Below are positions 10,901 to 46,585 of a stretch of DNA of 64,000 bases, piece by piece. This DNA comes from Candidatus Yanofskybacteria bacterium CG10_big_fil_rev_8_21_14_0_10_36_16 (GTDB lineage Bacteria > Patescibacteriota > Minisyncoccia > 2-02-FULL-40-12 > IGHO2-01-FULL-4-A), in NCBI GenBank assembly GCA_002794035.1, contig PCXQ01000004.1, positions 97,213-161,212 of the forward strand, read 5' to 3'. The notes beneath the pieces were generated by a model. The model was not told where the DNA came from, made no database searches, and worked only from the letters and a program-made list of their open reading frames with translations. Position numbers and translations under genes: made by a program. Positions within the stretch are counted from its first letter, which is position 1. Each line of letters opens with the position of its first letter.

Positions 10901-10901
10901 A

Positions 10902-11355: not shown

Positions 11356-11401
11356 GCTGGGCGGTGGATAGCCCATTAATATGAGTTATCCACCGCCCAG
11401 C
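11356..11401. promoter_or_regulatory. Perfect 15-bp inverted repeat / hairpin (gctgggcggtggata ... tatccaccgcccagc, 16-nt loop) 20 nt upstream of mraZ start
   Basis: Exact 15/15 complementarity seen in sequence; GC-rich in AT-rich context. Confidence 0.5.
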
Positions 11402-11491
11402 CATAGTTATTAACACTCTTATCCACTTTTTTACACTTCATAATCATTATATGCCACCTAACCCCCACTCTGCAACACCAGTTATCCCCAG

Positions 11492-11526
11492 AAAAAATTA
11501 AATTAAAACCCCATTTTACTGGGGTT
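11492..11526 (-). terminator. Rho-independent terminator (aacccca-ttttac-tggggtt + T-rich tail on minus strand)
   Basis: Hairpin immediately downstream (minus sense) of stop of 11528..11953. Confidence 0.5.
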
Positions 11527-11527
11527 C

Positions 11528-11953: not shown

Positions 11954-12038
11954 AAAAATCTCCTGTCTTAAAAAACTGCAACAAAAAATAGCACACAAAA
12001 TGCTATTTTACAAATAAATCAAATTTTATAGATATAAT

Positions 12039-26207: not shown

Positions 26208-27830
26208 TTATATTTCATCTGCATAATCACCATGAACCCATCCCCATTCGTTGAATCCCTTTTTAATTTTGTACCAGCCATTTTCAACATCAACAAACGT
26301 GTATTCTTCTCCAGGCAAAACTTGTCCCAAAACATCATACCCCGTAGAAGAACCACTTCTTACTCTCAAATATCCTATACCCTGAACAACCCTTAGTTTA
26401 CCGCCAATTCTCATTTGGGCAAATTCTTGTCCTGATATTACCTGCACATCGGCCCAACTATATCCCGCCGCGTTAAATTCTGCTTCAGTCCTAACCCATA
26501 TCAATGTCCCGTCTTCTCCTTGAACGTAAACTTTCGGATCATTTGTTTTCCTAAAGAGCTTGGTCGGCATATCCGATGGGGCAATTTGAAGTGCTGCAAA
26601 TTCCGGTCCTGATATTACCTGCACATCTTCCCATTTGTATCCGGCGGCATTGAAATCTTCCAGCGTACTAACCCAATGAAGCACACCATCACCTTCATCT
26701 ACATAAACTTTGGGATCGGCAACTTTTCTGAACAGTTTAACTGATATTACCGGTGCAGGGGTCGGGCTTGCTGTTACTATGGGTGTCGGAGCCGGACTAA
26801 CCACAGGGGTAGGCGTTGGTGTGGGTGTTGGTGTAGCAAAAGGTGTTCCTCCCCCACCGCCAGCGCTTTTTTTAGAGGCAACAATAGTAACCGTGCTTTG
26901 TGCGTCACTGCCAGTTGTTCGGTCTGTATAGGTTCCTGTTTTAGTATCCAAATCGTAATGTGTTACAGAAGCAGTAGTCTCCGTATCAGCTATTGGAACA
27001 GCACAAAAATAATCCCCATAATTAGCACCAGTTCCAGCTGTACAGCTCGTACCTAAGCTGTCACCTGCCGTAACAATACCTGTGGAAAGATTTGTTGTAC
27101 CGCCGGATACCTGAAGAGTTACCTTAACACCAAAAGATAAGCCCGCTGTATCAATATCAGAATCCTGAGAAGAATCAAAGTCAACGCTTTGTGATGCAGT
27201 TGCTGAAATTGTTAAAGCCGCTGATGTTCCATTAATATAACCATCAGCACCTCCCGCAATAGTCCCACCACTGGTTGACCCTGCAATATATTTCTTACCT
27301 CCACTATATGACTGAGAAGCAACCGTACCACTATAAGTAGCTGAGGCAGTAGTGCCATCCAGAGTCAAGGTGTTGCCAAGTTCATCCTCGATACCATTTA
27401 CAACTATGGAGTAATCCATGCTCGCCAAAGCGCTGAACGGGTCACTGGCCGAGGCCGGAAGCGCGACTGTAAAATCTCTGGTAACCCAGCCATCAAGGGA
27501 AGCTGAACCAGTAATGGTGTCGCTAGTTCCAAAAATACAACCAGCATCGGTCATTTCCTTTGACGCGGAAGCAACCTTAATAATACCATCCGCTGCTTGA
27601 GTGCTTTCTGAGGCCGTATTGTCAGTTATTGTTCCGAGACCGCTACCACATGAAAAGTTTATGGTAACCCCGTTATCATTTAAAACATCTAGTTCTGTAT
27701 CAATTCTAAAAAACACAAACTCACCAGCATCTGCCGCATAAGTTTCTCCCGGAATTAATATTACTGCAAATAAAAAAACAACAAAAACTGCTAATAAATT
27801 AAAACTCCACCTAACTAAACTGCCTTTCAT
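26208..27830 (-). CDS. Secreted surface protein with Thr/Pro-rich linker, tandem 50-aa repeat domain and C-terminal SH3b-like domain
   Basis: Signal peptide; TPFATPTPTPTPTPVVSPAPTP linker; duplicated KLFRK..DPKVYV...FNAAGY..DVQVISG repeat; C-terminal SH3b-like segment. Confidence 0.55.
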   Translation of the reverse strand: MKGSLVRWSFNLLAVFVVFLFAVILIPGETYAADAGEFVFFRIDTELDVLNDNGVTINFSCGSGLGTITDNTASESTQAADGIIKVASASKEMTDAGCIFGTSDTITGSASLDGWVTRDFTVALPASASDPFSALASMDYSIVVNGIEDELGNTLTLDGTTASATYSGTVASQSYSGGKKYIAGSTSGGTIAGGADGYINGTSAALTISATASQSVDFDSSQDSDIDTAGLSFGVKVTLQVSGGTTNLSTGIVTAGDSLGTSCTAGTGANYGDYFCAVPIADTETTASVTHYDLDTKTGTYTDRTTGSDAQSTVTIVASKKSAGGGGGTPFATPTPTPTPTPVVSPAPTPIVTASPTPAPVISVKLFRKVADPKVYVDEGDGVLHWVSTLEDFNAAGYKWEDVQVISGPEFAALQIAPSDMPTKLFRKTNDPKVYVQGEDGTLIWVRTEAEFNAAGYSWADVQVISGQEFAQMRIGGKLRVVQGIGYLRVRSGSSTGYDVLGQVLPGEEYTFVDVENGWYKIKKGFNEWGWVHGDYADEI

Positions 27831-31813: not shown

Positions 31814-32893
31814 TTATCTATTACTCATTATTGACTCCACCTCCTTGGTTACATCTTCGATAGATATTGAATTTATATCTTTATTTTCAGATGCCACAAC
31901 TCTATTTAACGGACCCGGGGTACGATGATATTCTCTAGGATCTGTAGGACCAACCAAAACAATATTTGGTACATCAAAAGCATCTGCGGTCACCATAGGA
32001 CCTGAATCATTCCCTATTACTAAATGTAATTTTGAAATCGTGGCCTTAAATTCATCAAGCGACTGATTAAGTAAGTTTATTACTTTTATGTCTGAACTTA
32101 AATATTTTAAAATTTCCGATATTGGCCCCTCATCTCTTCCTGCGCCAAGTAATATAATTTTTGCATTATGTTTTCTTTTAAGATATTCTGCCAATTTTGC
32201 AAATCTTTCTGAAGGCCACCAACGTTCAGGCACTGCTCCCCCAGATGCTATACCTACAACAAAATCTTTTTTAATATCTATATTATTTTTATTGAGGATT
32301 TCATTCACATTTTTATCTGCTTCTTCTGAAAAATAAAGGCGAAAATGAACATTACCATTATTGGCATTAATTGGTTCAAGTAATTTTAAATACTGAGGCG
32401 GAACATATTGACCATTATAAAATGATTTACCTATAACATTATTAGACAATAATGAATAAGATATAGATTTTATTGGTTTATCATTAATTGTCGTAAATGC
32501 TGAAATTGATTTAATTCCTGAAAAATAAAGCAACGCCAATCCCTCTGCGCTACCGGCATTAGCGAGACAAGCAAAGTCTATATGCTCTTTCTTTAGGCGC
32601 TTAATCACAGTCCAGAAATTACCATCGTATTGTAAATATTCATCTATATCAGGATTATTTCTTATTACCTCCTCTACCCGACCGGCCCCAACTAAATAAA
32701 GTTTGCTGTTGGGATATTTGTGTTTTATGGCCCCGAACATAGGCGTTATATAAACAACATCCCCTATGTGGGGTTTTGTCCTTAAAATCAGAATTTTGTC
32801 TGGATTGCTGATTATCTGATTTGATTTACCACCAAAAAATGAGTAAAAATAAGCAAAAATCAACAAAAATAAATTTTTAATCTTAGAAAACAT
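31814..32893 (-). CDS. Glycosyltransferase family 9 (ADP-heptose:LPS heptosyltransferase-like)
   Basis: GT9 signature IGNDSGPMVTADAFDVPNIVLVGPTDP. Confidence 0.7.
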   Translation of the reverse strand: MFSKIKNLFLLIFAYFYSFFGGKSNQIISNPDKILILRTKPHIGDVVYITPMFGAIKHKYPNSKLYLVGAGRVEEVIRNNPDIDEYLQYDGNFWTVIKRLKKEHIDFACLANAGSAEGLALLYFSGIKSISAFTTINDKPIKSISYSLLSNNVIGKSFYNGQYVPPQYLKLLEPINANNGNVHFRLYFSEEADKNVNEILNKNNIDIKKDFVVGIASGGAVPERWWPSERFAKLAEYLKRKHNAKIILLGAGRDEGPISEILKYLSSDIKVINLLNQSLDEFKATISKLHLVIGNDSGPMVTADAFDVPNIVLVGPTDPREYHRTPGPLNRVVASENKDINSISIEDVTKEVESIMSNR

Positions 32894-32986
32894 TGTAATA
32901 AAATAATAAACTATTACTTGCAGTATAGCAAATTATGTTATATTATCGTGTTGGTGAACCTTTATAAATAAATAGGAGAAACAAGA

Positions 32987-33187
32987 GTGAGCCTACTGAA
33001 AGGAAACTACAATTTACCAAAAAAGAAAGAAGGTAAAGAAAAGAAAGATAGGGAAAAAGATAAAAGTCTAGAAGAAGAATTTGAAGCAGCAGCACTTAAA
33101 AAACTAGGTGGAAGTATTACTTTTGTTAAAAAGGGCAAAGGTTTTGTACATGGCACAAAAACAAAAGAAAACAAGGGAGAAGAATAA
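32987..33187 (+). CDS. Small Lys/Glu-rich protein (66 aa), GTG start with AGGAG RBS
   Basis: RBS ataggagaaacaagaGTG; stop overlaps start of next gene (ATGA). Confidence 0.3.
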   Translation: MSLLKGNYNLPKKKEGKEKKDREKDKSLEEEFEAAALKKLGGSITFVKKGKGFVHGTKTKENKGEE

Positions 33188-34188
33188 TGTCTCTAGGCAA
33201 AAAACTCTCTCTTAAAATTGGTGAAGCAACGGCCCTTAAAACAGAGTCAATTGGATTAAAAAACGCCAAAAGAAATGCCCCCTATTTCAGTAACACAGTA
33301 GAAGATTTGGCCGTTTCAAATAAAGAAGCGGCCATTGTTATAGTTGGTGGTCCTAGTTTACACAGAAAAAACCCTGTAGAAAAAATATTAAATTCTAATT
33401 TTAAGGGTGATATTGTAACAGCAGATGGTTCTTTAGGCTATTGCTTAAGAAATGGCTTAGTTCCAGATTATGTTTTGTGCTTAGACCCTCATCCATATAG
33501 AATTGTGCGATGGTTTGGAGACCCCGACTTGGAATCAAGACCTGAAGATGATTATTATTCGAGACAAGATTTAGACCCAGAACATTGGAAAGATGAAAAA
33601 AAATGGAATAAAGAACTAATTAAACTTGTAAATCATCACGGCCCAAGAATAAAAGCCATCCTTTCTACTAGCGTAGACACCACGATAACCAAGCGTTGTA
33701 TTGAGGCTGGTATGGAAATATTTTGGTGGAACCCACTCTATGATGATATTGATGAACCAAACAGTGTCGCAAAAAAATTAAATGATGAAACCGGAATTCC
33801 TTGTATGGTAACGGGTGGCAACGTTGGTACCGCCTCTTGGATATTTGCCCACGCAATACTCAATAGAAAGCATGTTGCTTTAGCTGGAATAGATTTAAGC
33901 TATGCTCCGGGAACGCCCCATAGAAATACCCAATATTATTATGAGCTAATTGAACTTTTTGGTGATAGAGCGCCTGAGGCATTTATTGATATTTATAATC
34001 CCTACTTAAATGAAACTTGGTTCACAGATCCAACATATTATTGGTTTAAAAATGTGTTTCTAGAATTAGCCCCAGAAGCCAACTGTACAACATATAATTG
34101 CACGGAAGGTGGTATATTATTTGAAGATCCAATTAAATTTATACCTATGTCCGAATTTCTTTATAAATTTACTGAGAGAGGAGAATAA
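33187..34188 (+). CDS. DUF115/MptE-like (Maf-type motility-accessory-factor family) putative glycosyltransferase
   Basis: IVIVGGPSL ... TADGSLGYCLRNGLVPDYVLCLDPHP matches PF01973 core (GPSL...P-D-y-v-s-l-D). Confidence 0.6.
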   Translation: MSLGKKLSLKIGEATALKTESIGLKNAKRNAPYFSNTVEDLAVSNKEAAIVIVGGPSLHRKNPVEKILNSNFKGDIVTADGSLGYCLRNGLVPDYVLCLDPHPYRIVRWFGDPDLESRPEDDYYSRQDLDPEHWKDEKKWNKELIKLVNHHGPRIKAILSTSVDTTITKRCIEAGMEIFWWNPLYDDIDEPNSVAKKLNDETGIPCMVTGGNVGTASWIFAHAILNRKHVALAGIDLSYAPGTPHRNTQYYYELIELFGDRAPEAFIDIYNPYLNETWFTDPTYYWFKNVFLELAPEANCTTYNCTEGGILFEDPIKFIPMSEFLYKFTERGE

Positions 34189-34189
34189 G

Positions 34190-35812
34190 ATGGCAAAAGT
34201 ACTGTTTGTTAACCCAACTGTAAGACAAGAAGACAACCCCCTGCACATCCCTTATGGAATTGCCCTTTTGGCTGCAATATCTGACAAGAAAGGCCACCAA
34301 GTTCAAATCTTAGATGCAAACGCATGGAGACCTGATGACGACGAACTGCGTGAAGCAATAAAATCAGATAGATGGGATGTAATAGCTATAGGAGGAATTA
34401 CCACGACATATGGATACACTAAAAAAGTTTTAAAATATACAAAAGAAGATTCTCCAAAATCATTGAGAGTTATTGGCGGTGGCATATTAACGAGTATGCC
34501 ACAAGACATGATGAAACTAATCCCAGAAATAGACATTGGGGTTATTGGAGAAGCATTTGTAACTTTCCCTGAAATTCTAGAAAAAATTGATAAAAAAGAA
34601 CAAAACTGGGAATCTGTTTTAGGTATTATATGGAGAGATAAATATGGAAAATCCCACCTGAATCCAGAGAGGGCTCTGATTTCAGATCTTGATCAGCTTC
34701 CCTACCCAGCATGGAACATGCTACCCATGAAAGAGGTGTATTTCAAAAATAGTTCCCTTCTCTACAGCGAAGAGGCATATAGCTCCAAAGTAAGAATGGA
34801 TATAAACGGAAGTTTCGGTTGTCCATTTATATGTCGTTTCTGTTTCCATCTTGGTCTTGCTGGTGATTTGCATTACGACAACCCTAACAATGATCAAGCT
34901 GATACTATTTTTACACACAACAGAATAAACAGAGTCCACAGCCCTCATTATCTAGTAAAAATGGTAAAGTATATGCGAGATAATTATGGAACTGACTTTG
35001 TTTTATTTTTTGATGAGAATCTATTGGCAATGAATGTCTATATGAAAAACCAATGGTTGCCTGAAATCTGCCGTTTGTGGATTGAGGAAGGATTGCAACC
35101 ACAATGCACAAAAGATAACGTCCCACATGATCCTAAAAAATGTAAAGGTGTCCACTGGGGTGGAACAAGTCATGCAACGCTTGCCAACCCTGAACTACTT
35201 GCGCAAATGCATGAAGCTGGCTGCTCTCAACTCTTATATGGTTATGAATCATTTTCTAAAAGGATTCTAAAAAATGTAGGCAAAGGCGCCACTCCACAAA
35301 CCAATGAACGCTCACTTCACATGACCCTAGATGCTGGAATTAGACCAATCCCCAATCAAATGATGGGGTTCCCTGATGAATTTTTTGACAGTTTAATTGA
35401 CTGCGTCAATGCCTGGGAAAGAATGGGCATTGTTGTAAAACCATTTTTTGCCACTCCATATCCTGGTTCCGAATGGTATTATAAGTATAAAGATAAGATT
35501 CTTGAGCAATACGGCTACTCGGGCAATAGAGAATCTGATTACCTTGAAGCTCTAGATGCCTTTTTGATAGATCTTGGTGATGCTACAAAAATTACAGCTA
35601 CAATTTCACAGTACTTTACACCTGTTGAATTGCTGGGCCTTAGAGAGCTCATGGTAAATCGTGCTATTAAAAGAATAAAAGAATATGAAAAACACTGGAG
35701 GAGTCTCCACAACATTCATGGAGAACCCTCTTTTGATGATGTTAAATGGGCTCCAGCCCAACAAAAAAGAAAGGACGCTGGAGCATCTCAATTAGCTAAT
35801 ATAAAGTTATGA
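34190..35812 (+). CDS. B12-binding domain radical SAM protein (class B radical SAM, likely methyltransferase)
   Basis: N-terminal cobalamin-binding-like domain; radical SAM CxxxCxxC as CPFICRFC; start at 34190 after RBS gagagaggag. Confidence 0.8.
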   Translation: MAKVLFVNPTVRQEDNPLHIPYGIALLAAISDKKGHQVQILDANAWRPDDDELREAIKSDRWDVIAIGGITTTYGYTKKVLKYTKEDSPKSLRVIGGGILTSMPQDMMKLIPEIDIGVIGEAFVTFPEILEKIDKKEQNWESVLGIIWRDKYGKSHLNPERALISDLDQLPYPAWNMLPMKEVYFKNSSLLYSEEAYSSKVRMDINGSFGCPFICRFCFHLGLAGDLHYDNPNNDQADTIFTHNRINRVHSPHYLVKMVKYMRDNYGTDFVLFFDENLLAMNVYMKNQWLPEICRLWIEEGLQPQCTKDNVPHDPKKCKGVHWGGTSHATLANPELLAQMHEAGCSQLLYGYESFSKRILKNVGKGATPQTNERSLHMTLDAGIRPIPNQMMGFPDEFFDSLIDCVNAWERMGIVVKPFFATPYPGSEWYYKYKDKILEQYGYSGNRESDYLEALDAFLIDLGDATKITATISQYFTPVELLGLRELMVNRAIKRIKEYEKHWRSLHNIHGEPSFDDVKWAPAQQKRKDAGASQLANIKL

Positions 35813-35817
35813 TAATA

Positions 35818-35845
35818 AATACCCCACAGGGGTATTTTTATTTTT
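35818..35845 (+). terminator. Rho-independent terminator (atacccc-aca-ggggtat + TTTTTATTTTTT)
   Basis: Hairpin + T-run directly after rSAM stop. Confidence 0.55.
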
Positions 35846-37448
35846 TAGCTTTAACAATTATATTCCCGGAATACAAGAGTTTATCATCACCACTCAATAT
35901 TTTGGCCAGTATTTTTTGTAACAAACGTATTGGCATACTTTTTCTGACTCTGTTGGGGTAAACTCTTATTTCAGAAAAGCCAGCTTGACTAAGCAATTGA
36001 ATAATTAATGCTTTTGTATAAGCCCACTCATGAGTTAAATCTGAAAACAAGGTATGAATGCCATGAATACTATCAGCGTTTGGCATCTCTGCCACAAACA
36101 CACCCCCTTTTTCAAGATTTTTAAATATTAAATTCAACAACTCAGGCACGCGTTCTTTTTTTATGTGTTCAACAACATTTATAGCCGTAATAGCGCCGTA
36201 GTTTTCGCTTGAAGCTTTTTTTAAATAATCTATGATATCTCCCGTATTAATATTTTTTAAACCAAATTTATTCTTAGCATAATCTGTAAAATTTTTTACA
36301 ATATCTACACCCTCATAATTTTCATATCCCTGTTTTCGGCAAAAATCTAAAAATAGACCGAATCCACATCCAAGATCAATTATTTTTTTAGATTTATCCT
36401 TGGGCAATAAAGGCAAGATAAGATCATGGTAATCTTTAACTCGGGTTTTAATAAGATTCTCATCAAACATCTCATAAGTACTTTCGTAAACAACAATTTT
36501 TTGAGGTTCACTATATCCTAAATCATCTTTCTCATATTCAATATTTTTTATATCTTCTTTTTTGTTTAGGTTCATTTCATTTGATTGTATATCATGATTC
36601 TTTATAATCGACACACACGCAACAGCAGAAGCCCCTGCTATTTTGTTTAATTTCTCGTGCAAGCCAATATAACCATAAGAAGAATTATCACATTTACCAA
36701 CTTCAGATTTTTGCCAACCATTTTCAAAATATTTAAAGTAAGATACAGAACCCTCGTTATTAAAAGGCTCAATTAATCTATGGACCATTTGTTTATTAAA
36801 TTGTTGGAAAAATCCATGATTTTCATATTTGCCAAAAGGTACAGTAATTAATAATTGCCCTCCGGGTTTTAAAACTCTTTTTAATTCTAAGATTGCTTTT
36901 AAATAATCCTTACTACTGTTTTCATTATATTTATCTCCTGTATTATAAATCTCTGAATTGTCCATACCCACATGTTCGAGTGTTGAAATGCAAGTAATTG
37001 CATCAAAAAGATTATCCCTAAAAGGAAGATCCCGAATATCACCAAAAACATAAGAAACCCCTTTCCGCCAAAAACAATTTGATTCAGGCGCTAAGGTTGT
37101 AATTGTTATTTCTTTATTTTTTAATTTCTGATGATATAACAAAACCTCAAAATTTAAAGCCGAACCAGCATCTAATAATTTGCCAGATTCTTCAGATAAA
37201 TTAGCTAAAATCCATGGGTATTCAACAATTCTTTCATCAACACCCAATCCATAGCCACTAGACAAGTTACCTTTGTAAAATTTTTCCAATAGATCTTTAT
37301 TTTGGATGTTCCCTTTTATTTCTTTCCATTTGTACTCAAAATAACCCTTACTCCAAGGTTTCTTACCTCTTGTTTTATATAAATCAATTACCAACCACGC
37401 CCTGATTTTTTTATAAAATTTTAATAATTTAAAAAATATTTTCTTCAT
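35838..37448 (-). CDS. Fusion of two class I SAM-dependent methyltransferase domains
   Basis: Domain 1 LKPGGQLLITVP; domain 2 IIDLGCGFGLF...GGVFVAEMPN. Confidence 0.7.
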   Translation of the reverse strand: MKKIFFKLLKFYKKIRAWLVIDLYKTRGKKPWSKGYFEYKWKEIKGNIQNKDLLEKFYKGNLSSGYGLGVDERIVEYPWILANLSEESGKLLDAGSALNFEVLLYHQKLKNKEITITTLAPESNCFWRKGVSYVFGDIRDLPFRDNLFDAITCISTLEHVGMDNSEIYNTGDKYNENSSKDYLKAILELKRVLKPGGQLLITVPFGKYENHGFFQQFNKQMVHRLIEPFNNEGSVSYFKYFENGWQKSEVGKCDNSSYGYIGLHEKLNKIAGASAVACVSIIKNHDIQSNEMNLNKKEDIKNIEYEKDDLGYSEPQKIVVYESTYEMFDENLIKTRVKDYHDLILPLLPKDKSKKIIDLGCGFGLFLDFCRKQGYENYEGVDIVKNFTDYAKNKFGLKNINTGDIIDYLKKASSENYGAITAINVVEHIKKERVPELLNLIFKNLEKGGVFVAEMPNADSIHGIHTLFSDLTHEWAYTKALIIQLLSQAGFSEIRVYPNRVRKSMPIRLLQKILAKILSGDDKLLYSGNIIVKAKK

Positions 37449-37474: not shown

Positions 37475-38662
37475 CTATCTAAAAAGATAAATCTCGTCAT
37501 ATACATCGTTTACGGGACTCACCAGTCTCCTAATATTTATTCCGCTTTTAATATCATTAAAAAATAATGTCTTATTAAGACCCAGGAGGGGTTCTAATAT
37601 GTTTTTATAAAACCTATTCGCCTTATTAATTTTAAAACTTGCAAGATCTACAAAATCTAAGCTGGCTGTATCAAAATGAAATTTTAGATTCGCATATGTC
37701 ATAAAATTTATTTTTATATTATTTTTAAAATAAGACATCATACAATTTTCAACAAATTCAAAATAACTAAACCCAATCAATATATCAGAAGATTTTACTG
37801 GCAATTTTTTAATTTTATTAGATAATAAAATACTATTTAAAATTGTTTTTGGTTTAAGAGAATAAAAAAATCTTGGTAAAATAATTATTGTATCAAAATA
37901 ATCTCTAATATTTGTTTTGTGTTTCTCAGACCAACGATGATGATTAGAAATTACTAAATTAATCTTTTTAGTATAATCAATTTCTTTCATTAAAATAGCC
38001 AATGCAACAACTGCGGGCACATATCTTGTCTCGGCAACAGACAACCAAACTGAGCCCTTGTTTTTATTAAAAACACCCCTAAGTTTATTTTCCAATATTT
38101 TGTTTTCTTTTATTTCTTTTTGATTATTTACACAGTCAGATCCAATGTTTTTAATAAAAAAATTGTCTGGCATATCCCCAAACCAAAGCTGCATAAAACC
38201 ATAAGTTTGCTCATCAAAACAATTTAAAAACCCCCTAAAAAACACGTGGGAGTTTATCCCGAAATTATAAGAAGATATAGAAGAAGTAGAACAAACAGAA
38301 AAAGTACTATCAATATTTTTTTTATTTTTCCATAAAAAATCCTCTGATGATTCCCCGTTCCTAAAAAAAGTAAAACCATCTAATTTTAACTGTTTAAATT
38401 CATCGGTTTCGTCAGGGTGGGGTTTGTAATACAACTTATGCCCTTTATACTTTTTTTTTATATATTCAAGACATTGATTAGTTTTTTTAACGAATTCTTT
38501 AACATTTAAATTCCTAATATTTTTAAAATCAGCCCCAAAAAAAACAATGCAATTTGGCTCTACTGTGGGAGATTTTTGTTTTTTTTCTAATATATAATAA
38601 GGGTGGGATACCTTAAAAATGTTTTTTTTAGTCCAGTTAACACCACTTTTTTTTAAATACAT
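37475..38662 (-). CDS. Uncharacterised protein family A (paralog of 51373..52575); candidate nonulosonic-acid transferase with HP motif
   Basis: About 40 percent identity to 51373..52575 (shared YKPHPDETDE/YKAHPHETDE, HHRW, RWFYSLKP, SYFKNN, IIEPLLGLN). Confidence 0.45.
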   Translation of the reverse strand: MYLKKSGVNWTKKNIFKVSHPYYILEKKQKSPTVEPNCIVFFGADFKNIRNLNVKEFVKKTNQCLEYIKKKYKGHKLYYKPHPDETDEFKQLKLDGFTFFRNGESSEDFLWKNKKNIDSTFSVCSTSSISSYNFGINSHVFFRGFLNCFDEQTYGFMQLWFGDMPDNFFIKNIGSDCVNNQKEIKENKILENKLRGVFNKNKGSVWLSVAETRYVPAVVALAILMKEIDYTKKINLVISNHHRWSEKHKTNIRDYFDTIIILPRFFYSLKPKTILNSILLSNKIKKLPVKSSDILIGFSYFEFVENCMMSYFKNNIKINFMTYANLKFHFDTASLDFVDLASFKINKANRFYKNILEPLLGLNKTLFFNDIKSGINIRRLVSPVNDVYDEIYLFR

Positions 38663-38670: not shown

Positions 38671-39663
38671 TTATATAATTTTTTCTATTTTTTTTACATT
38701 TATATTATCGCTGGATGAAAATTTTAAATCTGTGCCAATTTTTTCAAAACCGTCATAAAACCTTGGTGCAAAATCAAGATTGTGAATACTGCTTGTGGGC
38801 ACAAGCACGAACATTTCTTTATTGGACCATATTTCTTTATTCCAATCATTGTCACCAGCAAGATCCTCATGTAATTTATCACCAGCGCGGTCTCCTATAT
38901 ATTTTATTTTTATATTTCCCCTTGGATAATATTTTTTTATAAAAATATTTGCCAAATCACCCATGCTGGCTGATGGCATTTTTAAAATAAATATTTCACC
39001 TCCTTGAGATAATTGTGACGCCTTAAGAATTAATTTAATAGATTGTTGTATAGACATAAAAAATCTAGTAGCGTCTTTGTTGGTTACTTTAATTTTACCG
39101 CCAACTTCTGCCTGCTTCTTCCACATTGTCAAAACTGATCCATCCGACCATGCCACATTACCAAATCTAACACATGAAAGCTTAATCTTGTCTGATAAAT
39201 AAAAATTAGAATTTATAAATAATTTCTCCATCATTAATTTTGAAACACCCAACACATTAAAAGGATTAGCAACCTTATCTGTAGAAATAGCAATTACTTT
39301 TTGTACTCCATTGTGTAAAGCAGCATCTATAATATTATGCGATCCAATAATGTTTGTCTTCATGGCTTCGGATGGATTATATTCACAAAAAGGCACATGC
39401 TTAAGTGCTGCTGTATGAAAAACCACATCAACCCCCTTAAATGCAAGCTGCAATCTATCTCGGTCTCTTATGTCACCAATAAGCATACTTAAATTTTTAG
39501 GATATTTAAGCTTTTCTAAAAGGTTATATTGTCGAGTTTCATTTCTAGATAAAACTCTAACCTGCTTAGGGTTAAACCTTAAAATCTGCATTACTAATTC
39601 TGAACCAACACTACCAGTTCCCCCAGTTACTAAAATTGTTTTCCCAATAAATTCGTTAACCAT
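38671..39663 (-). CDS. UDP-GlcNAc 4,6-dehydratase, PseB/LegB/CapD family
   Basis: ILVTGGTGSVGSEL, HTAALKHVP, ISTDKVANP motifs of PseB/FlaA1 family. Confidence 0.8.
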   Translation of the reverse strand: MVNEFIGKTILVTGGTGSVGSELVMQILRFNPKQVRVLSRNETRQYNLLEKLKYPKNLSMLIGDIRDRDRLQLAFKGVDVVFHTAALKHVPFCEYNPSEAMKTNIIGSHNIIDAALHNGVQKVIAISTDKVANPFNVLGVSKLMMEKLFINSNFYLSDKIKLSCVRFGNVAWSDGSVLTMWKKQAEVGGKIKVTNKDATRFFMSIQQSIKLILKASQLSQGGEIFILKMPSASMGDLANIFIKKYYPRGNIKIKYIGDRAGDKLHEDLAGDNDWNKEIWSNKEMFVLVPTSSIHNLDFAPRFYDGFEKIGTDLKFSSSDNINVKKIEKII

Positions 39664-40771
39664 TTTTTAAAATATTAATTAATTTTTTACTTATAATTTT
39701 TATGTCTTTTTCTTTTAACCCGATATAAAATGGTAAGGCCAAAGAAGAATCACTTACTAATTCTGAAACACTATAATCCCCCTTTTTATAACCAAACATC
39801 TTTTTATAAAAACTAAACAAATGTATAGAAGGCAAATATGGCTTAGTGCTTATTCCAATTTTTGCCAACCTCAACATAATGTTATCCCTCTTTACTCTAG
39901 TATACCCCTTCAATCTAACAACATATACAAACCAAGTATGCTTATTATTAGGTCCCATTTGAGGCAAAATTATCAAATCATCGTGTTTAGATAAATATTT
40001 ATTATAAAGCAATGCTATTTTTTCTCGTTCTCTTAATAAAAAATTGAGTTTGTCTAGCTGGGTCAGACCAAGAGCCGCACTCATTTCATCCATTCTATAA
40101 TTATATCCAAGCCTCTTGTGGTCTAACCAGCGCATATCTTCTGCCCTCCCTTGGTTTCTTAAACTCCTACATGTGTTGTAAATCTTTTTTGAATTTGTAA
40201 CCAACATTCCACCCTCTCCTGTTGTTATTTGTTTGTTTGGGTAAAAAGCAAATACAGCAGATTCTCCGAATGTTCCCGCATTTTTATTTTTATACTTAGC
40301 TCCGATAGACTCACAAGCATCTTCTATAATTTTAAGGTTGTGTTTTTTTGCTATTTTTTTTATTGAGTCCATATCTGCTGTTTGACCAAAAATATGAACT
40401 ACCAAAATAGCTTTTGTATTTTTTGTTATTTTTTCCTCTATTTTTTGAGGATCAATATTGTAAGTTGCAGGATCAATATCTACAAAGACTGGCTTTGCAT
40501 TAACATATAATATGCAGTTTGCTGAAGCAATAAAAGAAAAAGGCGATGTTATTATTTCATCGCCAGATTTTATTTCCGCTGCAATCATGGCCAAGTGTAA
40601 TCCTGCAGTACCACTAGACACAGCACATGCATATTTAACTCCTATAATTTCAGCGAATTTTGACTCAAATTTATTTATAAAAGGTCCGATACTCAAGATA
40701 CCAGAAGTTAAAACATTCTGAATGTTTTTTTTCTCTATATTTGTTATGAAAGGTTTTGCGATTAGATACTT
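39656..40771 (-). CDS. DegT-family PLP-dependent aminotransferase (PseC/LegC-like)
   Basis: DegT fold; likely start MKYLIAKPF at 40771 (ATGA overlap with upstream gene). Confidence 0.75.
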   Translation of the reverse strand, partial: KYLIAKPFITNIEKKNIQNVLTSGILSIGPFINKFESKFAEIIGVKYACAVSSGTAGLHLAMIAAEIKSGDEIITSPFSFIASANCILYVNAKPVFVDIDPATYNIDPQKIEEKITKNTKAILVVHIFGQTADMDSIKKIAKKHNLKIIEDACESIGAKYKNKNAGTFGESAVFAFYPNKQITTGEGGMLVTNSKKIYNTCRSLRNQGRAEDMRWLDHKRLGYNYRMDEMSAALGLTQLDKLNFLLREREKIALLYNKYLSKHDDLIILPQMGPNNKHTWFVYVVRLKGYTRVKRDNIMLRLAKIGISTKPYLPSIHLFSFYKKMFGYKKGDYSVSELVSDSSLALPFYIGLKEKDIKIISKKLINILKNG

Positions 40772-41550
40772 CATCTGTTTAAACGATTGGATAAATATTT
40801 TAAAATCTTTTTGTTTATTAATGTGACTTCTTGATCTCCTATAATTAATTTCGCACCGCAATAAGGCGGAAAGAAAAAAGCTCTTATTTTTCTATCCATC
40901 TCTTCGGCACTGTCTTCGTTTAAATTAATTTCTTTGTTTCTTTCAAGATCTTTTTTGCTCCAATAAACACCCCCTAAATTTGAAGTGGTTATTACTTCAT
41001 CACCTTCAATAAATAGTTGAATTACCTCCTTAAATAATTCCAATAAATAATCTTGCGATTTCTCCTCCAAAGAAAGTGCATTCTCTGTAACGGGGCTTAT
41101 TGGAAATTTCTTGACTTTAATAATCGGGCCAGCATCAAATTCTTCAGAATCAATAAAATGAGCGCTAACTCCATAATCCTCTCTTTTGTCTAATATTGCC
41201 GTATTATACCCTGCACGCCCCTTATAATCTGGCAATGGGGCAGGATGAAAATTAATACACCCTACTTGAGGTAAATTAATTAGAGGGTCTCTTATTCTCT
41301 TCCAATATAGATAAGAAATAACCAAATCAACATTATTAATTGATGTGTCCTTTTGTCTAATTAAATCATAAATATAACCCTCTGTTACAATAGGAATACC
41401 CAATGCTAAAGCAGTATCCTTTAATTTGATTTTGAAAGCCTCATTGGGATCAGCAACCACAAAAGGTACTTCTATACCGTTATTCAACAACCATTTTAAT
41501 GCCATTGAAGCACCAGGTTTTCTCCCCATTAAAATAACTTTTTTAATCAT
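40771..41550 (-). CDS. Formyltransferase-domain protein (putative sugar N-formyltransferase)
   Basis: N-terminal formyl_transf domain with INFHPAPLPDYKGRAG (HxSLLPxxRG-type) motif. Confidence 0.65.
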   Translation of the reverse strand: MIKKVILMGRKPGASMALKWLLNNGIEVPFVVADPNEAFKIKLKDTALALGIPIVTEGYIYDLIRQKDTSINNVDLVISYLYWKRIRDPLINLPQVGCINFHPAPLPDYKGRAGYNTAILDKREDYGVSAHFIDSEEFDAGPIIKVKKFPISPVTENALSLEEKSQDYLLELFKEVIQLFIEGDEVITTSNLGGVYWSKKDLERNKEINLNEDSAEEMDRKIRAFFFPPYCGAKLIIGDQEVTLINKKILKYLSNRLNR

Positions 41551-41628
41551 AGTGTCATCTCCTTTTTCCTTTTAAATTAACTACTTTCATTAAGATATAA
41601 TTAAACAACCCTAAAGTCAACAGCAACC

Positions 41629-42783
41629 CTAAATCTTAGCATGGGTAAATTTTTTATAAAATAAATTGTTTTTATTAATATTTTTTTCTAAAATTTTAAC
41701 AATCTTTTTGCTGGCAGTACCGTCACCATAAGGATTTTTAGACTTAGAAATAATTTGTTTAAAATCCCTGGACAAAGCTATGGAAATTGCTTTTTTAATA
41801 TTTTTAAAAGTATAATCACAATTTACAACATTTTCGGCATGTTCCCTGCCCAGCTGTCTATTACCAACATTTACCACCGGAAGTTTAAAAAAACTTGATT
41901 CCATGATTCCCGAGCTTGAATTTCCAATCATAATGTCAGCATGCTTCATAACATTAAGGTAAATTTCTCTATCTAAATTTTTAAATATATGAAATTCTTT
42001 ATTTCCTCTGTATTTATTTATTTCACTTATTATAATATCCTTACCAGTATCTGAATTTGGATAAATTATAATTTTTTCTCCATCCTCCTTTTCAATAGCT
42101 TTCAAAAGTGGCTCAATTTGATTAACAAATGAAATATTATCAAGCGGTGTAGGATGCTGAATCATTAAAAACCACTTTTTATTAACTTTTAAACCCAGTT
42201 TAGTAGCCAATGTTTTTTTTGGCACATATTTTAAAACCCTGGCTTCATCAAGACCTGGAGCCCCCACCAAGAAAACCCTATTTTTTTCCTCTCCCAAAAG
42301 AATAATTCTTTTGTAGCTTTTTGGAGTTGCAGCAAAATGCAAATGGGCAAATTTTGTAATAGAATGTCTTATATACTCATCAACAACATGCCCAGTAACA
42401 TCCCCTCCGTGTATATGCCCAATGGGTATTCTTAAATGAGAACCTACGATGGCACCGGCAAATTGCTCGCCCCTATCACCCAAAACAAGTATCATATCAG
42501 GTCTATTTTTCATGCAATATTTCTTTATACCTATTACATCATTAGATAAGGCATCCATCATATCACTATTATAAGGTGTGTTTATAATACACTTTATAGG
42601 AAACCCATCTTTTTTTATATCATTTATTGTAAACCCAAATTTTTTTTGAGTATGCATTCCAGTAACCAACAATTCTGGCTCTAATTTGTTGCTAATTTTA
42701 ATTTCCTTAATAACTGGCCTAAACAAGCCATAATCAGCTCTTGTTCCTGTAATTATTAAAATTCTTTTTTTATGTTTAGACAT
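41629..42783 (-). CDS. UDP-N-acetylglucosamine 2-epimerase (hydrolysing), NeuC/LegG family
   Basis: GDRGEQFAGAIVGSHLRIPIGHIHGGDVTG NeuC-type motif. Confidence 0.8.
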   Translation of the reverse strand: MSKHKKRILIITGTRADYGLFRPVIKEIKISNKLEPELLVTGMHTQKKFGFTINDIKKDGFPIKCIINTPYNSDMMDALSNDVIGIKKYCMKNRPDMILVLGDRGEQFAGAIVGSHLRIPIGHIHGGDVTGHVVDEYIRHSITKFAHLHFAATPKSYKRIILLGEEKNRVFLVGAPGLDEARVLKYVPKKTLATKLGLKVNKKWFLMIQHPTPLDNISFVNQIEPLLKAIEKEDGEKIIIYPNSDTGKDIIISEINKYRGNKEFHIFKNLDREIYLNVMKHADIMIGNSSSGIMESSFFKLPVVNVGNRQLGREHAENVVNCDYTFKNIKKAISIALSRDFKQIISKSKNPYGDGTASKKIVKILEKNINKNNLFYKKFTHAKI

Positions 42784-43858
42784 AGTGTGCTTTCTTAATC
42801 AAAGTATCTTTTTTTATGTACTTAGTAGATTTTTTACCCAAAATTAAATTAAAATATTTTGGCGGAAGTCCATTGCCGGGTCTTTTCACGCCAATATTTT
42901 TTTCAGAAAACAAGTCTCCCTTTTTAATATCTTTTGTAGCTACTACACTTTTTGCTGCAGCTTTTATAATTGTTTTTTCGTTGAATGTTAAAGTTTTTTC
43001 TCCAGAACCCAATGCTTGTTCTATGTTTCTAATCGCCTCCACTAATCTTTTTAGCTCATCCGGTTCCAAAGATGCCTTATGATCAGGACCTGGCAAATTT
43101 CTATCGAGAGTAAAATGTTTTTCTATTACACAAGCCCCCAAAGAAACTGCCGCAACAGCGGCCTCTATACCAAGGGTATGATCTGAATACCCAAAAAGTA
43201 CATCGTTTTTATTCCCGAGCGTTACCATGGCTCGTATATTAGCTTGGTCAAAAGGACATGGATAACTTGTTGTACACTGGAGTACAACAAGTTTATTATT
43301 CCCGGTTTTCCTAATAGCTTCTATAGACTCTGCAACAGAGTTTAAATCCTGCATCCCAGTAGAAAGGATTACGGGCAATTGCCATTCAGCCATCTTAGAT
43401 AAATATGGAATATTGTTTGCATCAGAAGAACCAACTTTTATTGCCTTAACCTTAATAGACTTTAAAAAAAATGCATCATCTAACGAAAAAGGCGTAGATA
43501 AAAAAAACAATCCTTTATCTTCAGCATATTTTTTAAGTTTCCTGTGCCATGACCTGGGTAACATTAATTTTTTTAGCATTTGATAATGGCTTTCTTTGCC
43601 TATATTTTTACTCTGATATTTTGCTTTGGGAGCATTTTTGATAATTAATGTTTCTGGATTAAATGTTTGAAATTTAATAGCATCTGCTCCGGATTTAGAA
43701 GCTATACTTATTAATTTTTTAGCCATCTTAAAATTACCATTATGATTAACTCCTGCCTCGGCTATTATGAAAGCTTTATGTCCTGGGCCAATTTTTATGT
43801 TCCCTATTTTTATAAATTTATTAAATTTTTCCATGTTAGATTGTCCAACCACCATCAA
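42776..43858 (-). CDS. Nonulosonic acid synthase (NeuB/LegI/PseI family)
   Basis: IAEAGVNHNGNFKMAKKLISIASKSGADAIKFQTF NeuB signature plus C-terminal SAF domain. Confidence 0.85.
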   Translation of the reverse strand: MMVVGQSNMEKFNKFIKIGNIKIGPGHKAFIIAEAGVNHNGNFKMAKKLISIASKSGADAIKFQTFNPETLIIKNAPKAKYQSKNIGKESHYQMLKKLMLPRSWHRKLKKYAEDKGLFFLSTPFSLDDAFFLKSIKVKAIKVGSSDANNIPYLSKMAEWQLPVILSTGMQDLNSVAESIEAIRKTGNNKLVVLQCTTSYPCPFDQANIRAMVTLGNKNDVLFGYSDHTLGIEAAVAAVSLGACVIEKHFTLDRNLPGPDHKASLEPDELKRLVEAIRNIEQALGSGEKTLTFNEKTIIKAAAKSVVATKDIKKGDLFSEKNIGVKRPGNGLPPKYFNLILGKKSTKYIKKDTLIKKAHYV

Positions 43859-44594
43859 TGACTAAATTGTGACCTGTTATATAGCCAGAATCATCTGATG
43901 ATAAAAATAAAAATGCTCCAACTAAATCACTCGGTCGAGCCATTCGATTGCCTAATAAAACTTTTTTAGAATAATTTTTTATAAATTTTTGGGGTTGATT
44001 ATTAAAAACCCCCCCAGGAGACAAAGAATTAACCCTTATATTATATTCACCTAAATAACTGGCTAGGTATTTTGTTAAATTTATAATAGCTCCCTTAACA
44101 GCAACGTATTCTACTGTTGTCCCCATGGCCATGTTCACACCTTTATAAATATCGAATCTTGGAGCAGAAAAACCATAAATAGATGCGACATTAATTATGT
44201 TCCCACTTCTTTGTTTTTTCATTATTTTAGCAACCTCCTTGGAAGTTAAAAAATAGCCACCAAGATGCATCCCCACATTTTCACAAAAATCATCATAAGT
44301 TACATCTTCCATTTTTCTACCATAATTTTTATTTTTTGGATAAGCACTATTTACCAAGACATCGATTTTGCCAAATTTTTGAACAATTTTTTGAAAAGAT
44401 TCTGAAACTGATTTTTCATTTGTTATGTCACATTTTAAAAACAATACTTTTTTAGCAAAAGTTTCCTCAGTCATATCCAAAACTGCAACATTCGCACCAT
44501 TTTCAATAGCTGCATTTACAAAAGCCCCCCCAATAAGACCTGCTCCCCCTGTTATAACAACTACTTTATTTTTTAATCTTAATTTTGGTTTCAT
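43836..44594 (-). CDS. Short-chain dehydrogenase/reductase (PtmA-like)
   Basis: VVITGGAGLIGGA Rossmann and YxxxK catalytic region. Confidence 0.7.
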   Translation of the reverse strand: MKPKLRLKNKVVVITGGAGLIGGAFVNAAIENGANVAVLDMTEETFAKKVLFLKCDITNEKSVSESFQKIVQKFGKIDVLVNSAYPKNKNYGRKMEDVTYDDFCENVGMHLGGYFLTSKEVAKIMKKQRSGNIINVASIYGFSAPRFDIYKGVNMAMGTTVEYVAVKGAIINLTKYLASYLGEYNIRVNSLSPGGVFNNQPQKFIKNYSKKVLLGNRMARPSDLVGAFLFLSSDDSGYITGHNLVIDGGWTI

Positions 44595-45861
44595 TTTTTT
44601 TAGTAAAAAATTCTATTGCTTTCTTTAAAGCATTAACTTGTTTTTTCATATCTTTTTCTATGCCCTGATTAGTCGTAAACTGCATAAGCTGTGGTTGTAT
44701 TTTTTCAGTATTAGGACATTTTATATTATTAGCAAAACCAATTAATTCTTTATCTTTTAAATTAAACCCTGGGAAATATTTTCCGCTACGATTAAGCATC
44801 TTAATAACTGGCTCCTTGTAAAGAGGCACCCAAGAAGCATAAATGCCATCCCCGCCAAATTCCATAAACTTTTTCCTGAAATCATACCAACTCACACCCA
44901 GCTTTTCTTCTCCTTCATATCTTATAGCTAAGGTCCAATAAGAATTATTATATCCTTTTGGTACTTTTTGTGGGATCAACCAATCGCACTTAGTCTCTTT
45001 TATTGCTTTAAGATATTTTTGTGCTATCTCCCGTCTTTTGCTTACAAGATAATCAATTTTTTCAAGTTGAGCTAACCCAACAGCTGCTGCAACCTCTGGC
45101 AATCTATGATTCCAACCCAAAGAATCATGGCGTTCATACTTGGGATCCTGAAATGAATCTTTTCCTTTTCTAACCTGCCCATTAACAGCTTTTACATTTT
45201 TATACCCAAGACAACCAAACTTTCTCATTCTTTCAGCAAATTTTTCATTGTTTGTAATCAAAATACCACCATCACCAGTTGAAAGATGTTTCGAATTTTC
45301 AAAACTAAAACTTCCAACATCTCCGATTGTGCCGCCTATTCTACCTTTTTCATCAGTACCCAAATAACACTGCGCGCAATCCTCCAGCACATAAAGATTG
45401 TATTTTTTTGCAATCTTCATAATTGCATCCATATCACAAACCTGCCCGTAAAGATGTACTGGCATTATTGCTTTTGTTTTTTTTGTAATTTTTCTTTCAA
45501 CATCTTTTGGGTCCATTAAAAAAGTATCGGGGTCAACATCAGCAAACACCGGCTTAGCTCTGTTATATAAAACAGCAAAAGCACATGAAACAACGGTAAT
45601 TGATGGGACAATTACTTCATCTCCAGGACCAACACCAAAAGCAGTAAGTGCTTGATTCAATGTTGTGGTGCCCGAAGTAGATGTTATTGCATATTTAACT
45701 CCAAAACGTTTGGTAAACTCTGATTCTAGACGTTGGTTCATGTTGCCACTAGTTGAACTACCGAAACCAGAATCCAAAACCTCTTTTACATATCTCAATT
45801 CGTTACCTCGAAACCTCCAACTGCGACTACTTTTTTTAAATTTTATTTTATTTTTTTTCAT
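44566..45861 (-). CDS. DegT-family PLP-dependent aminotransferase (second copy in module 1)
   Basis: DegT-fold sequence, 431 aa with N-terminal extension. Confidence 0.7.
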   Translation of the reverse strand: MKKNKIKFKKSSRSWRFRGNELRYVKEVLDSGFGSSTSGNMNQRLESEFTKRFGVKYAITSTSGTTTLNQALTAFGVGPGDEVIVPSITVVSCAFAVLYNRAKPVFADVDPDTFLMDPKDVERKITKKTKAIMPVHLYGQVCDMDAIMKIAKKYNLYVLEDCAQCYLGTDEKGRIGGTIGDVGSFSFENSKHLSTGDGGILITNNEKFAERMRKFGCLGYKNVKAVNGQVRKGKDSFQDPKYERHDSLGWNHRLPEVAAAVGLAQLEKIDYLVSKRREIAQKYLKAIKETKCDWLIPQKVPKGYNNSYWTLAIRYEGEEKLGVSWYDFRKKFMEFGGDGIYASWVPLYKEPVIKMLNRSGKYFPGFNLKDKELIGFANNIKCPNTEKIQPQLMQFTTNQGIEKDMKKQVNALKKAIEFFTKKNETKIKIKK

Positions 45862-46585
45862 TTTTTTTGTGTCTCATTATGGCGCGAACAACTTTTAAAT
45901 CATAAATGTCATCCACTTCATAATTTTGCCACCTTTCAATAAAATAAGGCATTATCCTTTTGGGATAAAAAGTTCTTTCTTTTTGTAAGGTTTTAGTCTT
46001 ACAAAGGTAAACTACGCCATATGGGAAATATGTCCTAGGCAAATCTTGCCTTCTCATAGTTAATCTTGAAATATTAATAAGAGATTTAATAAATCCCTTT
46101 TCGATTTTTTTAGCATAAAATGGACTTTCTAAATTAATCTCACCAACACTAACAACGGCATCGGTTTTATTCCAGTTATTAATCAATATTTTTATCGCAT
46201 TATCTATGTCTTGTGTTTTTCGTAACGGTGAAGTGGGCTCTAGCAAGGCTACTGCGTCATATTTTTCTTCGTCCTTACTTAACTGATCCAGTGTATATAG
46301 AACAGCGTCGATTGTTGGCGATTTATCAGTTGCTAATTCTTGTGGTCTTAAAAATGGAACATCTGCTCCATATTTATTCGCAACCCTAACAATCTTTTTA
46401 TGATCAGTTGACACTATTATTCTTGTAATTAGCTTTGATTTTTGAGCAGAGTTAATTGAATGAGCAATAAGGGGCAACCCTCCGATATTAATAATATTTT
46501 TACCAGGAAGACCTTTTGAGCCACCTCGAGCTGGAATAAACGCCAATATCTTTTTAGTTTTATTTTTAATTATTGTTTTAATCAT
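45848..46585 (-). CDS. Acylneuraminate cytidylyltransferase-like (CMP-nonulosonic acid synthetase, NeuA/LegF family)
   Basis: ILAFIPARGGSKGLPGKN CTP_transf_3 motif. Confidence 0.8.
   Translation of the reverse strand: MIKTIIKNKTKKILAFIPARGGSKGLPGKNIINIGGLPLIAHSINSAQKSKLITRIIVSTDHKKIVRVANKYGADVPFLRPQELATDKSPTIDAVLYTLDQLSKDEEKYDAVALLEPTSPLRKTQDIDNAIKILINNWNKTDAVVSVGEINLESPFYAKKIEKGFIKSLINISRLTMRRQDLPRTYFPYGVVYLCKTKTLQKERTFYPKRIMPYFIERWQNYEVDDIYDLKVVRAIMRHKKNEKK

Follow-up and report, generated by a model that had tools for sequence, protein, structure and literature searches.

In a 64-kb window (about 33% G+C) of contig PCXQ01000004.1 from Candidatus Yanofskybacteria bacterium CG10_big_fil_rev_8_21_14_0_10_36_16, three consecutive genes encode a small protein, a DUF115 protein related to the Maf enzymes and a B12-binding radical S-adenosylmethionine (SAM) enzyme, and we find that this three-gene arrangement recurs far beyond chance. 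The cassette is strictly co-inherited across at least a dozen phyla, where it lies within pathways for legionaminic (Leg)-type nonulosonic acids. We tentatively propose that its products may act as a three-protein module on the legionaminic-type sugar activated with cytidine monophosphate (CMP), and not as a terminal transferase that glycosylates surface proteins. Its parts come from known superfamilies, and the combination of a minimal Maf, a new small-protein family and what we predict to be a new radical SAM subfamily is undescribed: in the literature, we found no paper joining DUF115/MptE-like proteins with radical SAM enzymes and none joining nonulosonic acids with B12 radical SAM enzymes.

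The initial annotation of this sequence had placed three open reading frames (ORFs) here as an operon, and our analysis, in which all three are on the plus strand, agrees, because the first start codon is preceded by a Shine-Dalgarno motif, the junctions are tight, a hairpin follows the last stop codon and a 93-nt gap separates the unit from a divergent gene upstream (Table 1). The Shine-Dalgarno motif lies 7 nt 5' of the GTG that opens the small ORF, a start that fits the family, as the resulting N-terminus, MSLLKGNY, is the family N-terminus. For the radical SAM gene, the ATG at 34190 is the biologically sensible start, although the mechanical call was a GTG at 34109. The DUF115 and radical SAM proteins share 100% identity with proteins from a metagenome-assembled genome of Candidatus Yanofskybacteria. 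A 1-nt gap had been described between the DUF115 and radical SAM genes and is indeed present (TAA-g-ATG), whereas the ATGA overlap described between the first two genes is instead TAATG, in which the stop codon TAA and the ATG share 1 nt. A promoter scan of the upstream region gave nothing above shuffle expectation, and the promoter itself is presumed.

Scanning with the DUF115 protein, at one genome per species, yielded 80 loci, and later counts use 79-86 sequences (83 for the radical SAM gene, 86 for the motif regular expression). The identical order of small ORF, DUF115 gene and radical SAM gene recurs in 85 other loci, in keeping with the expectation that the genes would be kept together in relatives. 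Carriers belong to the candidate phyla radiation (CPR), Elusimicrobiota, Dehalococcoidia and other Chloroflexota, Methylomirabilota/Rokubacteria, Planctomycetota, Nitrospirota, Omnitrophota, Latescibacterota, Myxococcota/Deltaproteobacteria, Alpha-, Beta- and Gammaproteobacteria, Spirochaetales and Pelagibacteraceae, and include one cultured organism, Paramagnetospirillum caucaseum SO-1. A radical SAM homolog (47-74% identical) lies 3' of the DUF115 gene in 82 of 83 loci, the lone exception being a contig end, and the two genes are separated by 60 nt or less in 75 of 80. Upstream, tblastn detects a small-ORF homolog in most loci, and the homolog was also found in the remainder when these were read by eye. 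A regular expression built on the small-protein motifs has exactly one match, directly upstream of the DUF115 gene, in 84 of 86 sequences; of the two misses, one has no upstream flank and the other carries a one-residue variant of the motif. The small ORF overlaps the DUF115 gene or ends within 30 nt of it in 56 of 79 loci. The two enzyme families are on a par in size, with 1,471 clusters for DUF115 (typically 50-68% identical, about 335 aa) and 1,462 for the radical SAM protein. All three cassette proteins are 40-77% identical across phyla, and the DUF115 protein 40-67%, among hosts with quite different envelopes.

Several loci depart from the usual layout. Genes are inserted between the DUF115 and radical SAM genes in three of them: a class I SAM methyltransferase in L072 (7166-8026), methyltransferase-like and polysaccharide-deacetylase-like ORFs, as read by eye, in L026 (6900-8920), and an insert of equal size in L030. 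A second, shorter B12-binding radical SAM protein (477-478 aa) is encoded near the cassette in L084 (1-1319) and L085 (4861-6297), CPR loci with a fused gene of the kind described below, and an rSAM-SPASM protein is also nearby in L084. An apparent archaeal occurrence (L031, titled Nitrosotalea sp.) was set aside as probably a misbinned bacterial contig, since it has 70% G+C and a cassette like those of Methylomirabilota/Rokubacteria. A search of a plasmid collection returned no radical SAM homolog at E 1e-40 or better.

Confirmation of the DUF115 domain by profile search had been set in advance as a test of the initial annotation, and both this assignment and that of the B12-binding radical SAM domains were upheld by Pfam scores above the cut-offs. 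The DUF115 protein matches PF01973 with E 4.5e-13 (49.8 bits against a cut-off of 34.6), in an alignment limited to residues 27-103, which correspond to profile positions 3-80 of 171. The family alignment contains about 70 invariant positions, with invariant blocks GPSLH, RWFGD, WWN, PCMxGGNxG, GxDxxYxPG, TQY and NCTEGG, and D236, E276, D281 and E307 are candidate invariant acidic residues. Motifs of the GxGPSL type are the nucleotide-sugar motif of sialyltransferases and Maf. Residues 208-316 align with positions 344-454 of the PseD model (NF050051; E 1.4e-10), at 40.5 bits against a cut-off of 670; MptE was the sole match in a sequence search of the PDB, and the central domain has a fold like that of Maf and the GT42 sialyltransferases. 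Maf proteins, about 600-900 aa in total, comprise an N-terminal Rossmann-like domain, the PF01973 domain and a C-terminal helical or TPR domain that binds the acceptor (PMC11339370). The DUF115 protein, which has no other Pfam domain, does not share this three-domain architecture; it belongs to the Maf branch of the superfamily and lacks the N-terminal Rossmann-like and C-terminal helical/TPR domains, and we therefore refer to it as a mini-Maf.

The likeness to Maf 5mu5 of Magnetospirillum magneticum, to PseD/PseE and to CbMaf lies in the GxGPSL-type motif, the partial match to PseD and the position of the gene beside a pathway of the pseudaminic (Pse)/Leg type. The mini-Maf differs from these enzymes in that it is half their size (333 versus about 630-900 aa), is always paired with the small protein and the B12 radical SAM enzyme, coexists with a true Maf in two loci (L040 and L018), and is encoded outside flagellar loci, with flagellin nearby in 1 of 86 sequences and carriers that include CPR, Dehalococcoidia and Pelagibacteraceae. 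A classical Maf was sought as an intermediate for residue mapping and the candidates were rejected, as the long representative matches are intein-containing or extended DUF115 proteins that have no sequence reach to 5mu5. In one of the family members, P0395 (834 aa), the invariant GGNxG motif is interrupted, exactly within its sequence, by an intein-like insertion; inteins favor conserved functional sites, and the site of this insertion underlines the importance of the motif.

The radical SAM protein matches PF02310 (B12-binding; 60.4 bits against a cut-off of 32.1, profile positions 12-120 of 121) and PF04055 (Radical_SAM; 52.2 bits against 29.5). C211, C215 and C218 are invariant among 47 homologs that are 58-77% identical to the window protein, and further Cys and His residues are conserved in the same alignment. 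With TsrM, TokK, CysS, MgmA and OxsB the protein shares the class B layout of an N-terminal Rossmann-type B12-binding domain and a CxxxCxxC core, but it differs from these enzymes in being always encoded after a mini-Maf and in falling below every curated subfamily cut-off. All 16 matches to curated class B subfamilies in NCBIfam are far below their cut-offs, the best being ApyD with 89 bits against 750, and these sub-threshold matches comprise ApyD, BchE, HpnJ, HpnR, PhpK, KedN5, MgmA, P-methylases and C-methylases of ribosomally synthesized and post-translationally modified peptides (RiPPs). Sequence matches in the PDB are marginal (E 6e-6 or weaker), and the fold of an AlphaFold model (pLDDT 88.8) matches TsrM, TokK and CysS among others. 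As modeled, the protein would have a class B fold of a generic kind, to which no substrate can be assigned, and would represent a new subfamily.

Contextual support for the view that the enzyme really uses cobalamin comes from a single-cell genome of a Pelagibacteraceae member (AG-895-B08, L083), in which the cassette lies inside a Leg-type operon that encodes HisF, a SIS isomerase, a PglD-like acetyltransferase, NeuB, NeuC and PtmE, then the cassette, with a convergent CMP-synthetase gene. Directly beside the cassette, at 9327-12065, are a DUF6580 membrane protein, a TonB-dependent receptor whose best match is a B12 receptor, and, preceding the receptor gene, an adenosylcobalamin (AdoCbl)-II riboswitch (11974-12065, minus strand, 82.5 bits). 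No cobalamin riboswitch was found near the cassette in 11 other loci. The arrangement in L083 suggests that a cobalamin requirement is tied to surface-sugar chemistry in this SAR11 relative.

The small protein is an obligatory, conserved third component of the cassette, because it is encoded upstream in every locus that keeps this flank and is fused to the DUF115 protein in one clade. Its family comprises 2,807 clusters of 57-89 aa, all named 'hypothetical' and none with a Pfam domain; searches of Pfam, NCBIfam and the PDB with the small protein gave no match. An alignment of 25 members defines an N-terminal motif, M-x-x-h-L-K-G-N-[YF], a highly charged linker of about 15-25 residues whose sequence is variable, and a C-terminal motif, [EQ]xxFExxALxKLGGS[IM]x[FY]VxK...[FLV]xW, after which comes a short tail that is usually acidic; the invariant residues are G6, N7, G42 and S43. 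In the window copy, His replaces the nearly invariant Trp of the C-terminal motif (codon 55, 33149-33151; FVHG versus FVWxG). The initial annotation had described this ORF as Lys-rich, which is true of the variable linker only and reflects the AT-rich genome, and its treatment as an incidental peptide does not hold. One helix is predicted at low confidence, along with a short hydrophobic segment. In three representatives of one clade (P0002, P0004 and P0006; 410-415 aa), an in-frame fusion joins the small protein to the N-terminus of the DUF115 protein, and we verified it on two independent contigs, in each of which the radical SAM gene comes next. When the fused protein was searched against 1.8 billion representatives, its own clade was retrieved and no further convincing fusion, and P0448, considered as an additional fusion, looks like a frameshift artefact. 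We dropped a block alignment intended to dock the small domain, as MAFFT scatters the small proteins over DUF115 columns when more than a few DUF115-only rows are present. Among the 23 loci whose spacer between the small ORF and the DUF115 gene measures 35 nt or more, no consistent attenuator or stabilizer hairpin was found, and z-scores were mostly near zero. P0384 and P0395 lack a separate small protein and instead carry a different extension at the N-terminus.

With its two short motifs, variable linker and fusion to the mini-Maf, the small protein looks like a tether or adaptor, and a precedent exists among Maf enzymes. Maf-2 depends on GlfM, a small adaptor encoded in cis, which is an 89-aa four-helix bundle similar to FliS/FliT that bridges to flagellin and interconverts with fused domains like Maf-1's TPR, and Maf-1-type enzymes suffice for flagellin glycosylation (Unay, Kint and Viollier, bioRxiv 10.1101/2023.12.03.569772). 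The cassette resembles the GlfM-Maf-2 system in combining a Maf-type enzyme that has no acceptor-binding domain with a small, conserved, cis-encoded partner, and in the interconversion of separate and fused forms. It differs in that flagellin is missing from nearly every locus, the third partner is a radical SAM enzyme, and the small protein, at 55-70 aa, has one predicted helix, two short motifs, a variable linker and no family match where GlfM is a four-helix bundle; the small protein is not demonstrably a GlfM homolog.

The genes that surround the cassette constitute a Campylobacter-type legionaminic acid gene set. To define neighbors, we clustered the ORFs of all loci, complemented this with tblastn and read family names from representative sequences, with Pfam confirmation of neighbor identities for L083 and the window. 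The commonest neighbor is a CMP-nonulosonate synthetase, which lies no more than 6 kb away in roughly two thirds of loci; in many cases its gene immediately precedes the small ORF or immediately follows the radical SAM gene. Others are a PtmE-like CBS-nucleotidyltransferase, NeuB, DegT aminotransferases, a NeuC-type epimerase, a LegB/PseB-like dehydratase, LegC- and PtmA-like genes, a hexapeptide (PglD-like) acetyltransferase and a family of about 330 aa that we take, unscanned, for a PtmF-like oxidoreductase; a subset of loci also has HisH/HisF with an amidotransferase (acetimidoyl branch). The link to a legionaminic-type pathway drawn in the initial annotation thus extends to dozens of phylogenetically distant loci. 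Locus clustering revealed no protease, exporter or candidate acceptor family that recurs near the cassette, an ABC exporter being present in 9 loci only. A flagellin probe (the N-terminus of E. coli FliC, validated by a match of 47% identity) matched 1 of 86 sequences, L040. There the order is CMP-synthetase, small ORF, mini-Maf, radical SAM gene, canonical Maf and flagellin, the last two spanning 8552-12290, and the canonical Maf has 908 aa, a Maf_flag10_N domain, PF01973 (E 4.6e-41) and a C-terminal TPR. In L018 (Nitrospirae), a canonical Maf directly follows the radical SAM gene (8466-11114), and L070 has two extra Maf-like genes. The hosts of L040 and L018 are presumably flagellated, and the terminal (flagellin) transferase in both appears to be a separate protein, which argues for a role of the cassette other than final transfer.

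From the gene order, co-inheritance, fusion, folds and pathway context, we infer that the three proteins may form a complex with the CMP-activated sugar as its substrate, which would place the cassette between sugar activation and transfer. The neighboring pathway would supply the CMP-activated legionaminic-type nonulosonic acid, the mini-Maf would recognize and possibly transfer it, and the radical SAM enzyme would perform a radical tailoring step, most plausibly cobalamin-dependent C-methylation, on the sugar or on the sugar held by its partner proteins. As the obligate third subunit, the small protein could be an adaptor standing in for the domains with which classical Maf binds its acceptor, or it could serve, through its invariant Ser, as a transient carrier or acceptor. 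The tailored sugar might then be placed on a host surface glycoconjugate by other transferases, such as the glycosyltransferases (GTs) of the surrounding island or, in flagellin-linked loci, the classical Maf-TPR. The identity of 40-77% across phyla with different envelopes fits an invariant small-molecule substrate or one internal to the cassette, and we favor the CMP-activated sugar or the small protein itself. Fom3, a class B radical SAM enzyme of fosfomycin biosynthesis, methylates a CMP-linked substrate and would offer a parallel in logic, with a class B enzyme acting on a CMP-activated intermediate from an adjacent cytidylyltransferase, although its substrate belongs to another class and it has no Maf-like or small-protein partner. 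Fom3 was not among the NCBIfam matches of the radical SAM protein, and P-methyltransferase models (the Sden_1168 and PhpK families) matched weakly, far below their cut-offs.

Several observations weigh against this proposal. The closest fold to the radical SAM model is AprD4, a B12-free sugar diol dehydratase, which makes methylation by the enzyme uncertain. The catalytic residues E324 and D415 of Maf 5mu5 could not be mapped onto the mini-Maf, and a GT-like protein would not obviously be needed merely to present a CMP-sugar. In an AlphaFold model of the fused protein, the small domain has pLDDT below 50, with three sequences covering that part. Canonical Maf neighbors occur in only 3 of 86 sequences, and flagellar islands often hold several Mafs, so a neighboring Maf leaves room for a second transfer by the mini-Maf.

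Among the alternatives, the one that assigns the DUF115 protein to terminal transfer of the nonulosonate onto a lineage-specific pilin, S-layer or other surface protein, with the radical SAM enzyme methylating the glycan or the protein, corresponds to the initial annotation, to which we add the small protein as a GlfM-like specificity adaptor. It draws on the Maf-like fold, the nonulosonate context, the GlfM precedent for a small cis-encoded adaptor and the composition of the window, which has no flagellin yet encodes a T2SSE ATPase. We consider it improbable and found no support for transfer to a pilin or S-layer protein, because a full Maf-TPR adjoins the cassette in L040 and L018 (together with flagellin in L040), the mini-Maf has no acceptor-binding domain and the cassette is conserved across phyla: adaptor and enzyme remain 40-67% identical among hosts with unrelated surface proteins, where a lineage-specific acceptor should drive divergence and where GlfM orthologs, by comparison, are mostly not interchangeable between species. 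Nor is any candidate acceptor gene conserved near the cassette.

That last gap would be filled if the acceptor were the small protein itself, the only candidate that is always co-inherited. The mini-Maf would then O-glycosylate it at the Ser of LGGS, the radical SAM enzyme would methylate the peptide or the glycan, and the product would be a small glycoprotein or a RiPP-like glycopeptide. The invariant Ser comes after a predicted helix, much as in the minimal helix-plus-loop acceptor of CbMaf (PMC11339370), the absence of any acceptor-binding domain in the mini-Maf agrees with such an arrangement, and LGG resembles the end of a double-glycine leader. We nevertheless regard this explanation as rather unlikely. 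Fusion of a consumed substrate to its own enzyme would limit the protein to a single turnover, neither a protease nor an exporter is conserved with the cassette, no attenuator hairpin is present to raise precursor levels, and the region after GG is conserved where a precursor would be hypervariable; unlike a RiPP precursor with its conserved leader and variable core, the small protein is conserved at both ends, with variation confined to the linker and the extreme tail. The streamlined genomes of CPR and Pelagibacteraceae, and the setting in surface-sugar operons, also fit a pathway step better than a secondary metabolite. A related idea, to which we give little credence, is that the small protein serves as a dedicated glycosyl carrier, with the mini-Maf loading the nonulosonic acid onto the invariant Ser and the radical SAM enzyme C-methylating or rearranging the protein-bound sugar. 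This would amount to protein-templated sugar tailoring, by a logic like that of biosynthesis on acyl carrier proteins (ACPs) or LysW, and would yield a previously undescribed nonulosonic acid derivative or a small glycoprotein. It would extend over more than 12 bacterial phyla and impose a need for cobalamin on lineages such as SAR11 relatives and CPR. Finally, the AprD4-like fold could be accommodated if the DUF115 protein were a phospho- or pyrophosphotransferase resembling MptE or thiamine pyrophosphokinase that activates a hydroxyl, on the sugar or on a precursor, for radical elimination or rearrangement by an AprD4-like radical SAM enzyme, giving a deoxygenated or rearranged sugar. This we judge very doubtful, as Maf is clearly the better match (274 versus 196 residues), the C-terminal half matches the PseD model in sequence, the B12-binding Pfam domain is well above threshold, and in L083 a B12 uptake locus lies by the cassette, whereas AprD4 works without cobalamin.

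Very many environmental and pathogenic bacteria carry nonulosonic acids (legionaminic, pseudaminic and sialic acids) on their surfaces, and to our knowledge most enzymes that tailor or transfer them outside flagellar systems of the Campylobacter type have yet to be described. The cassette is a compact, highly conserved and entirely uncharacterized three-gene unit, represented by about 1,450 clusters for each enzyme and about 2,800 for the small protein, and offers a real chance of new chemistry in nonulosonate tailoring or transfer. If our proposal of a tailoring module is true, it predicts a widespread, undescribed nonulosonate derivative and a hidden cobalamin demand tied to cell-surface chemistry.

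Table 1. Positions of the cassette and adjoining features in the window
Feature	Positions	Strand	Remarks
GT9 gene	31814-32893	minus	Divergent neighbor upstream of the cassette (ORF map)
Divergent intergenic region	32894-32986		93 nt, between GT9 gene and cassette; holds Shine-Dalgarno-like AGGAGA at 32974-32979
Small protein	32987-33187	plus	66 aa, GTG start; new unannotated family
Mini-Maf (PF01973/DUF115)	33187-34188	plus	333 aa; GGPSL nucleotide-sugar motif, many invariant residues
B12-binding radical SAM protein, class B-type	34190-35812	plus	540 aa; CPFICRFC; predicted new subfamily
Terminator-like hairpin	35817-35837		AAATACCCCACAGGGGTATTT + T-run; common to the convergent gene 35838-37448
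Double class I SAM-methyltransferase protein	35838-37448	minus	536 aa; Pfam; convergent with cassette
395-aa protein	37475-38662	minus	Between cassette and nonulosonate operon
Nonulosonate operon	38671-46585	minus	Pfam and NCBIfam

In the window, the operon is part of a glycan island that spans about 45 kb (roughly 15.6-61.7 kb) and encodes many GT4, GT2 and GT9 proteins, sugar dehydratases, C- and O-methyltransferases, a Wzy_C/TPR protein, an ABC exporter and a PMT_2 protein. A long minus-strand operon converges on the cassette, includes the nonulosonate genes and ends with the double methyltransferase and the 395-aa protein. The nonulosonate genes encode a PseB/LegB-like 4,6-dehydratase, a PseC/LegC-like aminotransferase, a formyltransferase, a PtmA-like short-chain dehydrogenase/reductase, a NeuC-type hydrolyzing 2-epimerase, a NeuB synthase, a second aminotransferase and a CMP-sugar synthetase, and the NeuC_NnaA and NeuB_NnaB models score above their NCBIfam cut-offs. 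By reference to the established Leg and Pse pathways, a NeuC-type epimerase that occurs alongside a 4,6-dehydratase and an aminotransferase points to a 5,7-diamino sugar of the legionaminic type and away from pseudaminic acid. This module had been placed 2 kb from the cassette; the distance is really about 2.9 kb from the radical SAM stop codon, with two genes between. The initial annotation had observed no flagellar genes in the window; the flagellin probe has no match there, and a T2SSE-type ATPase (170-1417) is the sole pilus-related gene among the annotated ORFs.

Both genes that separate the cassette from the nonulosonate operon have counterparts in relatives. Class I methyltransferases recur beside or inside the cassette (L001, L072 and L026). 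The 395-aa protein, which has no match in Pfam or NCBIfam, is a candidate for the actual nonulosonate transferase; tblastn places its homologs next to the cassette in two CPR loci (L004 and L007), and in L085 a 405-aa protein with no Pfam match lies beside the cassette. Elsewhere in the window, the product of a minus-strand gene at 26208-27830 has 540 aa and a C-terminal SH3_3 domain, and the gene lies in a 42% G+C patch amid about 33%; a plus-strand ORF of 135 aa at 24345-24752 matches only Polysacc_synt_C, a flippase C-terminal domain, and is possibly a remnant or a mis-started gene.

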